Assembly: GCA_016869285.1 (NCBI GenBank)
Contig: VGEN01000001.1
Location: 7,201-71,200 of the forward strand
Origin: Alphaproteobacteria bacterium
Lineage (GTDB): Bacteria > Pseudomonadota > Alphaproteobacteria > SHVZ01
Length of the DNA: 64,000 nt
Direction: 5' to 3'
Positions within the stretch are counted from its first letter, which is position 1. The number at the start of each line of letters is the position of its first letter. Positions 57,746 through 60,416 of this stretch are shown one piece after another. The notes beneath the pieces were generated by a model. The model was given only the letters and a program-made list of their open reading frames with translations. It made no database searches and was not told the origin of the DNA. The position numbers and the translations under genes are program-made.

Positions 57746-59890
57746 ATGGCGCTGACCGAACTGAGGCGCGCCATGCCTGAACACCAACGCCATCCGCACG
57801 CGCACGGCCATGCCCACGCCGATGCCCATGCCGGGCAGGAGGCGCCGACGCAGCCGGCAAAGGCGGGAGTCAAGTGGACCTGCCCGATGCATCCGGAAAT
57901 CATCCGCGACGCGCCGGGAAGCTGCCCGATCTGCGGTATGGCGATGGAGCCGTTGTCGCCATCGGCCGCGACCGATGACGTGAGCCCGGAGCTCGCCGAC
58001 ATGTCGCGGCGCTTCTGGGTCGGCGTCGCCCTTACCGTGCCGGTCGCTCTTCTGGTCATGCAGCCGCATCTGCTCGGACACATGCCCGTCGCGCCTCGCC
58101 TCTCGGTCTGGGCCGAGATGCTTCTGGCGACGCCGGTCGTTCTGTGGGGCGGCTACCCGTTCTTCGAGCGGGGATGGCGGTCGGTCGTCAACCGCCGGCT
58201 CAACATGTTCTCGCTGATCGCCCTCGGCACCGGCGTCGCCTATCTCTACAGCCTCGTCGCGGCGTTCTTTCCGTCGGTCTTCCCTGCCTCGTTCCGTTCG
58301 GCCGACGGCGAGGTCGCGCTCTATTTCGAAGCGGCGGCCGTCATCGTGACGCTGGTGCTCCTGGGCCAGGTGCTGGAGCTTAGGGCGCGATCACAGACCA
58401 GCAGCGCGATCCGCGCCCTGCTCGACCTCGCGCCGAAGGAAGCGCGGCTGGTCCGCGTCGATGGCGTCGAGGAGGACATCCCGCTGGACCGCGTCCAGCC
58501 CGGCGACGTCCTCCGCGTGCGGCCGGGCGAGAAGGTCCCGGTGGACGGGATCGTCACCGAAGGCCACAGCGCCGTCGACGAAGCGATGATCACTGGGGAG
58601 CCCGTGCCGTCGGAGAAGGAGCCAGGATCGAAGGTCACCGGCGCCACGGTCAACACCACCGGAACCTTCCAGATGAAGGCCGAGCGTGTCGGCAGCGAGA
58701 CGCTGCTCGCGCAGATCGTCGACATGGTCTCGGCTGCGCAGCGTTCGCGTGCGCCGATCCAGAGCCTGGTCGATACGATCTCCGCCTGGTTCGTGCCCGG
58801 TGTGGTCGCGGTCGCCATCGCGGCCTTCATCGCCTGGTCGGTCTGGGGGCCGCCGCCGGCGATGGGGCACGGCCTCGTCAATGCCGTCGCGGTGCTGATC
58901 ATCGCCTGTCCTTGTGCGCTCGGCCTCGCGACGCCGATGTCGATCATGGTCGGCACCGGCCGCGGTGCGATGGCTGGCGTGCTGGTCAAGAACGCCGAGG
59001 CGCTGCAGCTCATGGAAGGGATCGACACGCTTGTCGTCGACAAGACCGGCACGCTCACCGAGGGAAAGCCGAGGTTGGTGGGCGTCTATCCGATCGGCGG
59101 GATCGCTGAACCGGAGTTGCTGCGGATGACGGCGAGCCTGGAGCGTGGCAGCGAGCATCCTCTGGCAGCGGCGATCGTCAGCGGCGCCGAGGCGCGCGGC
59201 GTCCGGCCGCCGGCGACTAGCGACTTCACGTCGATCAGCGGTAAGGGCGTCACCGGCATGGTGGACGGGCACCACGTCGCGGTCGGCAACGCCGCGCTGC
59301 TGGCCGGGATCGGGATCGATCCAGGCGGCTTGTCGAAGACCGCCGACGAACTCCGCGCCGACGGACAAGGGGCGATGCTCGTCGCAGTAGATGGCCGCCC
59401 GGCAGGCGTCATCGCGGTCGCCGATCCGATCAAGGAGAGCGCCGCCGCCGCGATCCGGAGCCTGCAGGAGCAAGGAGTCCGCATCGTGATGATGACAGGG
59501 GACAGCCGGCGAACGGCCGAAGCGGTCGGCCGCAGGCTCGGCATCGAGGAGATCAAGGCCGAGGTCCTGCCCGAGCAGAAGGCAGGCGCCGTCAAGGAAC
59601 TGCAGTCGAGCGGACGGCGCGTCGCCATGGCCGGCGACGGCATCAACGATGCGCCCGCCCTGGCACAGGCGACGGTCGGCATCGCCATGGGAACCGGGGC
59701 CGACGTGGCGATGGAAAGCGCGTCCGTCACCCTGCTCAAGGGCGACCTCAAGGGCATAGTGCGCGTCCGCCGGCTGTCGCGGGTACCATGCGCAACATCC
59801 GCGAGAACCTGTTCTTCGCCTTCGTCTTCAACGCGCTCGCGGTGCCGGTGGCCGCCGGCGTGCTCTATCCCGCCTAGGGAATCCTGCTGA
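57746..59890 (+). CDS. copA: copper-translocating P1B-type ATPase (CopA/ActP-like); C-terminal region disrupted (1-bp deletion near 59784 and in-frame TAG at 59875-59877), native reading frame would end at 59976
   Basis: His-rich N-terminus ([13 protein letters not shown]), CPMHPEI...CPICGM metal-binding domain, CPC ([13 protein letters not shown]), [13 protein letters not shown]; likely true start at ATG 57773 given operator position. Confidence 0.8.
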
Positions 59891-59972
59891 GCCCGATCAT
59901 TGCCAGCGCGGCGATGAGCCTGAGCTCGGTGCTGGTTATCGGCAACGCCTTGCGGCTGCGGACAGTCACCCT

Positions 59973-60416
59973 GTGAAACGGTGGTTCGTCGCGGCCGTTG
60001 CAGCGGCGGCGGTCGGCGCCGCCGGCATGTGGCTTACGCAAAGGCCGGCTCAGGACGCCCAGACCGCCGACGCTCACCCGATCGAGCTGGGCCGGACGGT
60101 GTATGCGGCGCATTGCGCCTTCTGCCACGGAGCGCGGATGGAAGGGCAGCCGAACTGGCGCGAGCGGCGGCCGGACGGACGTCTTCCGGCACCGCCGCAC
60201 GACGCCAGCGGTCACACCTGGCACCACTCAGACCGCCAGCTGATCGAGATCACCAAACGAGGCGTCGCCGGCATCGTCCCCGGTTACCAGAGCGACATGC
60301 CGGCCTATGGCGACATATTGTCGGAGAGCGAGGTCCAGGCGGTGATTGCCTACATCAAGTCAGGATGGCCCGAGGCCGTCCGAAGACGCCAGCCGCGTGA
60401 TGAGCAGGGAAGGTGA
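59973..60416 (+). CDS. c-type cytochrome (class I, single heme)
   Basis: 147 aa; signal peptide, CxxCH heme motif CAFCH, distal Met region; GTG start overlapping end of copA native frame. Confidence 0.7.
   Translation: MKRWFVAAVAAAAVGAAGMWLTQRPAQDAQTADAHPIELGRTVYAAHCAFCHGARMEGQPNWRERRPDGRLPAPPHDASGHTWHHSDRQLIEITKRGVAGIVPGYQSDMPAYGDILSESEVQAVIAYIKSGWPEAVRRRQPRDEQGR

Follow-up and report, generated by a model that had tools for sequence, protein, structure and literature searches.

Is the copA gene of this alphaproteobacterium, which encodes a Cu(I)-exporting ATPase, broken in the cells that carry it, or is it broken only in their assembly? The question arises from the end of copA in a 64,000-nucleotide stretch of DNA (NCBI GenBank assembly GCA_016869285.1, contig VGEN01000001.1, positions 7,201 to 71,200 of the forward strand), which is referred to below as the window and in whose numbering all positions are given. 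An initial annotation had noticed a 1-bp deletion and an in-frame amber codon within the last 65 codons of the gene, and set two options side by side: either the gene is a pseudogene in decay, or a stretch rich in guanine and cytosine (GC) has been sequenced or assembled wrongly at two points. The evidence assembled here argues that copA is truly a unitary pseudogene, inactivated very recently, in an almost clonal wild population of a GC-rich bacterium of the Lake Tanganyika oxycline, a reading to which we assign a probability of roughly 0.9. The parts of the gene on which the argument turns are as follows:

57746–59890, + strand: annotated copA open reading frame (ORF), 714 amino acids, ending in an out-of-frame, low-complexity tail
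57746–59784, + strand: part of copA in the original frame, matching Pfam HMBD, E1-E2_ATPase and Hydrolase, and positions 2-483 of the 542 of TIGR01511
59783–59784, + strand: site of the 1-bp deletion, the GT left of a codon for which intact orthologs have GCG (Ala) or ACG (Thr)
59783–59890, + strand: aberrant tail, 35 nonsense residues in the product actually encoded, closed by TGA at 59888-59890
59785–59874, + strand: untranslated remnant of helix H7 (M5) in the -1 frame, with the metal-site motif N-x6-FN-x4-P
59875–59877, + strand: amber codon TAG in the dead frame, derived from TGG (Trp) by a G/A single-nucleotide polymorphism (SNP) at 59876
59878–59976, + strand: untranslated remnant of helix H8 (M6) and the original C-terminus, with P-x6-M-x2-SS-x5-N and the original stop TGA at 59974-59976

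The two frames are arranged as first described. The annotated frame stops at 59890, and the shifted frame, from 59785 to 59976, still codes for the final two membrane helices of copA, broken by the TAG. When both lesions are repaired, the last 93 residues of CopA align without a gap to residues 644-736 of the Legionella protein (LpCopA, PDB 3RFU; E = 1.6e-34), which are its exact C-terminus, and both proteins finish in VTL. The annotated product scores 491 bits against TIGR01511 (cutoff 397) over its partial match only; the repaired protein scores 581.5 bits and covers model positions 2-542. Comparison with orthologous copA genes, which the initial annotation had proposed as a check, locates the lesion precisely: a DNA alignment of the window with two deletion-bearing contigs (L082, L084) and two contigs carrying intact orthologs (L085, L086) shows exactly one base missing between CGG (59780-59782) and ACC (59785-59787), the window reading tcgcgggt-accatg where L085 has tcgcaggcgaccatg and L086 has tcgcagacgaccatg. 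The deletion falls at codon 680, about 64 codons from the end of the gene. Which base of the Ala/Thr codon was lost is not assignable; the originally suggested repair, GGG(c)TACC, is valid, and others, such as GGGT(g)ACC, are equally good. The amber codon had been placed at the aromatic or leucine position of a YPxFG motif. That position stands, and the residue is specifically Trp, which occupies it in all close intact homologs.

Whether the deletion exists outside a single assembly can be judged from other contigs of the same population. The window is 100% identical to a 99-kb JGI contig, Ga0194131_10000189, from metagenome IMG 3300020193 (Kigoma offshore, 120 m, October 2015), which belongs to the set of 24 from Lake Tanganyika in Tran et al. 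2021. The deletion is found in every contig recovered that covers the site: L081, which shares the haplotype of the window, and three others:

L082: metagenome 3300020197, Kigoma, 65 m, July 2015; 3 SNPs relative to the window in 12.3 kb; deletion present
L091: metagenome 3300020198, Mahale, 65 m, July 2015; identical to the window, ending at 59877; deletion present
L084: ENA ERZ27247963, a MEGAHIT-style assembly; 4 SNPs over the 16.3-kb overlap with the window; deletion present

The deletion-bearing contigs thus come from three samples, spanning two stations and two months, together with one ENA assembly. They differ at other SNPs (L084 and L081, for example, at 6 in 22.1 kb) and are therefore separate consensus sequences. 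In a protein collection, the exact 714-residue product occurs on 4 JGI contigs and a variant of it on 1 ENA contig. No intact copA allele of this population was found among the approximately 15 billion proteins searched, and in a database of 5.8 billion clusters the next best protein after the 714-residue cluster is at most 90% identical. Two scans of metagenome contigs for alleles of the deletion site returned no match, in a collection that lacks even the source contig. A scan of genome contigs with the repaired CopA recovered no close relatives, the best being 67% identical among the matches listed, and a collection of plasmids held only distant copA genes (at most 74%).

Because the deletion recurs in contigs that differ elsewhere, and because it lies in a run of only three G with no homopolymer of five or more within 300 nucleotides, it is real; random or systematic error behind it is very unlikely. 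A local quality problem, which the initial annotation had thought plausible in view of a further in-frame stop upstream, is likewise not borne out, as thirty further genes of the window cover their Pfam models over practically the full length and the seven genes adjoining copA carry distinct families.

The lesions did not arise together. Three haplotypes can be distinguished:

Window, L081 and L091: frameshift present; TAG at the codon of 59876; Pro (CCG) at copA 58539; TAA in the upstream cyclase gene at 57607
L082: frameshift present; TAG at the codon of 59876; Pro (CCG) at copA 58539; TAC (Tyr) in the cyclase at 57607
L084: frameshift present; TGG at the codon of 59876; Leu (P265L) at copA 58539; TAA in the cyclase at 57607

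As L084 has the frameshift together with the TGG of the intact orthologs, the frameshift is older than the amber codon. The TAG is a later G-to-A change in an already dead frame and is a segregating SNP; in the frame actually read, it amounts to an Arg/Gly difference within the junk tail. The P265L change of L084 falls in the near-invariant motif GEKVPVDG. The proposed course of events would thus begin with the loss of a single base from codon 680, after which the deletion allele would have become the only one now seen in all assemblies that cover the site. A G-to-A change would then have turned TGG into TAG in the untranslated frame, where it is still polymorphic, while another haplotype would instead have acquired the Pro-to-Leu change in the conserved motif.

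Eight SNPs separate the haplotypes (52653, 57607, 58539, 59876, 59931, 61933, 62242 and 62330), and all except the synonymous change of L082 at 59931 are non-synonymous or nonsense. Such a proportion (7/8) is typical of very young variation that is yet to be purged, and weak purging is general in this region. This qualifies the suggestion, made at the outset, of locally relaxed selection: the shared 12.3 kb has 5 SNPs, of which 3 do fall within copA (p ~0.04 by our binomial estimate), a concentration that is suggestive only and weakly indicates relaxation at copA, but the excess of protein-changing variants is region-wide. Contigs also end at or near polymorphic positions, with L091 ending at 59877, L092 ending at 58540 and L083 starting at 59907 (59876 + 31, one k-mer). 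The breaks near 59876 and 58539 suggest assembly-graph bubbles, with alleles co-existing within single samples.

What the encoded protein has lost can be read against the well-described pumps of its family. By its sequence, the copA product is by descent a P1B-1 Cu(I)-ATPase (TIGR01511/TIGR01525) and, as encoded, a predicted truncated member; against the equivalog model of E. coli CopA it scores 660, far under the cutoff of 1316. The part in the original frame encodes an HMBD metal-binding domain, helices MA, MB and H3-H6, the A-domain and the P- and N-domains. All the catalytic motifs lie in that frame: TGE in the A-domain, DKTGT, HP in the N-domain and GDGINDAP. So does the CPC motif of H6 (M4), which is invariant in our homolog alignment (A1). 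These motifs are common to LpCopA (PDB 3RFU/4BBJ) and A. fulgidus CopA (3J09). The gene in the window differs from both in being broken before H7, and in having an N-terminal domain of the CxxC-type HMBD (PF19335) rather than a ferredoxin-like HMA.

In A. fulgidus CopA the two transmembrane Cu(I) sites are formed by Cys380 and Cys382 (H6), Tyr682 and Asn683 (H7), and Met711 and Ser715 (H8) (PMC7558416). The H7 motif N-x6-YN-x4-P is absent from the translated frame here; its counterpart in the shifted frame has FN, the F and N of which sit opposite Y688 and N689 of LpCopA. The H8 motif is intact as DNA (59893-59946), its M and S opposite M717 and S721 of LpCopA, yet it is out of frame and behind the TAG. 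The encoded product would keep the HMBD, the A-, P- and N-domains and six helices, with 35 junk residues in place of H7 and H8. As four of the six transmembrane Cu(I) ligand positions are gone (Phe and Asn of H7, Met and Ser of H8), it should be unable to transport copper; from established CopA biochemistry, we infer a 714-residue protein that is non-functional and probably unstable. The FN pair itself is a feature of the wider group: throughout this clade of HMBD-type Cu-ATPases the 'YN' ligand pair of H7 is 'FN' in alignment A1 (FVFNAL; 59806-59829, shifted frame), so that the site-1 Tyr ligand is replaced by Phe, and YN is kept in Legionella CopA and in a more distant homolog (P0033).

Intact relatives give both the reference for the lesion and its timing. 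The closest homologs with a contiguous frame are 90% (P0007/L085) and 85-87% (P0002-P0006/L086-L088; 87% for L086) identical in amino acids and read RARRLSQ[AT]TMRNIREN...LYPxWGILLSP...LRLRTVTL. The two-frame arrangement is absent from L085, L086 and 14 further homologs, all of which have one contiguous frame. L085 (JGI 3300044954) and L086-L088 (metagenome-assembled genomes from ENA/NCBI) belong to different species-level lineages, at 83-87% nucleotide identity. They share with the window the pairing of copA with a downstream cytochrome c gene across a GTGA overlap, and L085 also shares genes further downstream (PG_binding_1, aldo-keto reductase, cytochrome c554 and Pyr_redox), while L086 shares a CueR-type operator. 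They differ in that their frames are contiguous, encode 734-736 amino acids when complete and have Trp at the amber position.

The ratio of non-synonymous to synonymous rates (dN/dS, Nei-Gojobori) for copA is 0.149 between the window and L085, 0.158 between the window and L086, and 0.137 between L085 and L086. Lineage-specific synonymous and non-synonymous changes number 64.5 and 27.5 on the window branch, against 63.8 and 29.2 on that of L085. Even in the 192-nucleotide dead tail, differences from the orthologs lie almost entirely at synonymous positions of the old frame. Since dN/dS resembles that of the intact relatives, and since the operator and the downstream gene are untouched, the inactivation would be very recent: on these comparisons, purifying selection appears to have acted normally on copA along practically the entire branch, up to a very recent death.

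Several points weigh against this reading. All the contigs are consensus assemblies, from which a minority intact allele could escape. The three named samples come from one project and one platform (Illumina), and the ENA assembly could be a sister sample assembled anew. The haplotypes are grouped one way by the derived allele at 57607 and another way by that at 59876, implying either recombination or chimerism in the consensus contigs; phasing over 2 kb in metagenome contigs is unreliable, and long-range phase was not used. A non-synonymous excess on the copA lineage is absent, and the signal of decay consists of the frameshift and two secondary lesions (TAG and P265L), among three haplotypes only. 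Finally, we infer both the loss of copA function and a polar effect on the cytochrome c gene.

With these points taken into account, a reproducible disabling lesion relative to intact orthologs remains, as expected of a recent, unitary pseudogene. Secondary lesions exist as well, though the dN/dS of the lineage (0.15) is not raised. Of the two options first put forward, that of a decaying pseudogene is the one upheld, the same deletion having been recovered in independently assembled contigs from three samples and an ENA assembly. Ordinary bacterial pseudogenes likewise show a disabling indel, later lesions in the dead frame and a regulatory region that is still intact; this one is unusual only in that the order of its lesions can be read from co-existing haplotypes of a natural population. 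It is a tidy snapshot of early gene death, with the frameshift universal in the sampled contigs and a second hit still segregating. The kind of event is ordinary and opens no new question, and the question of an artefact is closed. There is a practical consequence: public databases list the 714-residue "Cu+-exporting ATPase" unflagged, a pseudogene flag is warranted, and copA should not count as a working exporter in inferences about metabolism or metal resistance for this population.

Other explanations have nevertheless to be weighed. That the deletion and TAG are errors in a gene that is intact in the cells would find some footing in the 66.5% GC of the region and in the common Illumina origin of the named samples. 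It is very improbable, given that at least six contigs, which differ at other positions and derive from two assembly pipelines and three samples or more, share the deletion, and that the run of G at the site is just three bases long; that TAG/TGG and TAA/TAC behave as ordinary biallelic SNPs; and that contigs break at polymorphic sites (L091, L092 and L083), as expected from real strain variation. The full-length protein could alternatively be made by a programmed -1 frameshift near 59784 combined with readthrough or reassignment of TAG. A -1 shift at GTA/ACC would yield LSRVTMRNI and the right protein length, and a programmed -1 frameshift is known in E. coli copA (PMC7558416, citing Meydan et al. 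2017). The E. coli case, which produces CopA(Z), concerns the same family and also leads to the -1 frame (Meydan et al. 2017; Drees et al. 2017). It requires a slippery sequence, a pseudoknot and the nascent chain, however, and takes place near codon 70, truncating the protein after the first metal-binding domain to give a short chaperone rather than rescuing a C-terminus (PMC7558416). The shift in the window lies at codon 680, lacks a slippery motif (the 59242-59890 overlap is free of X XXY YYZ heptamers, and homopolymers of five or more are absent), is not conserved in the orthologs, whose frames are contiguous, and leads to junk. TAG moreover ends 6 other genes of at least 100 amino acids and TAA ends 4, and both in-frame stops are polymorphic with sense codons, so that recoding is extremely improbable. 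A pyrrolysine reading of the TAG was rejected on similar grounds, both MttB-family genes in the window being uninterrupted, non-pyrrolysine types and TAG a normal terminator. Phase variation at the GGG run was also rejected: three bases are far too short, and no length variants were seen.

A split gene would place the 680-residue body and a 62-residue H7-H8 peptide, started at ATG 59788, together again in the membrane. An in-frame ATG (the Met of TMRNI) does lie 3 nucleotides past the deletion, and in L084 the resulting ORF reaches the original stop. The TAG of the window haplotype and two others, however, cuts that ORF after 29 residues, with the loss of H8; a cell dependent on the peptide would not tolerate this. 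ATG 59788 is not preceded by a Shine-Dalgarno-like GGAG (tcgcgggtaccATG), the codon is buried inside the translated upstream ORF, the body has its 35-residue junk tail, and the L084 haplotype carries P265L in a near-invariant motif. We regard this arrangement, too, as highly improbable. A different kind of alternative accepts the pseudogene and attributes its spread to selection favouring loss, for instance where scarce copper is retained in the cell for cuproenzymes at the oxycline. Both stations, some 150 km apart, have the deletion, as do both sampling months; genes for a CuA-like subunit and a COX1-like protein, an identification that is partly our own reading of the sequence, lie 1.7 kb downstream; and the neighbouring cyclase also has a common loss-of-function allele. 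Set against this, with a mere 3-6 SNPs per 12-22 kb the population has so little diversity that any variant could be universal, and recent clonal expansion explains a universal deletion without selection, the alternative being hitch-hiking or drift among clonal cells. No independent second loss of copA was seen. Spread by selection is unlikely, and the claim that the loss of copA, perhaps with that of the cyclase, was positively selected in the oxycline population is doubtful. Were it true, copper would be in short supply at the sulfidic/oxic boundary while the neighbouring CuA/haem-copper-oxidase-like enzyme depended on it, and the locus would represent adaptive gene loss caught just after a sweep, with the order of lesions still readable. 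The inactivated, recently intact copA remains the preferred reading in what follows.

The sequences that flank the dead gene are well preserved:

57714–57744, + strand: probable copA promoter with a MerR/CueR-type operator; -35 TTGACC at 57714-57719, a dyad and CATATG
59973–60416, + strand: intact mono-haem cytochrome c gene with a GTG start, matching Pfam Cytochrom_C and Cytochrome_CBB3

An inverted-repeat search found a perfect dyad, GACCTTCCA-N5-TGGAAGGTC, at 57716-57738, overlapping the -35 element and followed by CATATG; we take it to resemble the CueR box of E. coli PcopA. The layout TTGACCTTCC...GGAAGG..CATATG also precedes the intact ortholog of L086. A scan for sigma-70 consensus promoters did not call the copA promoter, although the 19-bp spacer of a MerR-type promoter makes such a scan uninformative, and a helix-turn-helix motif search found no MerR/CueR regulator gene in the window. 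The true start of copA is probably ATG 57773 (Met10 of the annotated ORF), 27 nucleotides downstream of the annotated one, since the N-termini of the orthologs align there, GAGG precedes it, and ATG 57746 comes directly after the -10 region.

The GTG start of the cytochrome c gene overlaps the original copA stop (GTGA), and the same 4-base overlap is present in L085 and L086. Translation of copA now ends at 59890, 83 nucleotides short of that start, and there is no Shine-Dalgarno-like sequence 5' of it. With termination removed to that distance from a start it normally overlaps, the loss of termination-reinitiation coupling would be likely to lower expression of the cytochrome c. The GTGA overlap of a Cu-ATPase gene with a mono-haem cytochrome c gene recurs in three separate lineages (window 59973-60416; L085 2097-2543; L086 12208-12654). 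We know of no described role for this conserved pairing.

Upstream of copA lies the gene with the further stop that the initial annotation had counted, correctly, 2.2 kb away:

56465–57685, + strand: class III nucleotidyl cyclase in which a nonsense SNP segregates, TAA at 57605-57607 in the window and TAC (Tyr) in L082

The TAA results from a C-to-A SNP and removes the last 26 residues, the TAC allele encoding 406 amino acids. The frame goes on past the stop in conserved form (VFEKRGTVILKGKGAIDTYFLIAPR*), and the Pfam Guanylate_cyc match extends over positions 3-156 of 183 for the TAA allele and 3-182 for the TAC allele. The TAA allele is present on 7 contigs, and the TAC allele is known from one. 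This stop is a separate event, independent of the copA lesions. A six-frame scan of codon usage showed coding-like remnants beyond the called genes at two places only, past the cyclase stop and in the copA tail; everything else that it flagged proved to be a genuine small gene. A frameshift suspected at 42283-42286 was rejected, as the minus-strand ORFs there are two genes, for a phosphonate-binding protein and a dimethylsulfoniopropionate (DMSP) lyase.

Further observations concern the rest of the window. At 61650-63982, a 219-amino-acid ORF without a Pfam match has the CuA-like pattern DVSH...x36...C-x3-C-x3-H-x2-M, and directly 3' of it is a divergent COX1-family gene (119.6 bits). Neither L085 nor L086 has the pair in its syntenic region. 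Judged by these features, the two genes may form an unusual haem-copper oxidase or a pair resembling nitric oxide reductase (NOR). The population SNPs R95H and L198P fall in the 219-residue ORF. A large island for the catabolism of methylated amines and osmolytes occupies 15098-45509. It includes sarcosine oxidase genes (soxB-like, a small soxD-like ORF at 16392-16634, soxA-like and soxG-like), two uninterrupted MttB-family methyltransferases of the non-pyrrolysine type (20231-21805 and 30407-31852), a corrinoid protein, a RACo activase, DUF1638, a homocysteine S-methyltransferase-like gene, two DAO-GCV_T dehydrogenases and the DMSP lyase (41681-42283). At the far end, positions 1-1291, within an ABC permease gene, are 84% identical to L086 20787-22077. 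In L086 this stretch lies approximately 10 kb downstream of copA, whereas in the window it lies 57 kb upstream, which indicates rearrangement or large insertions between the relatives.

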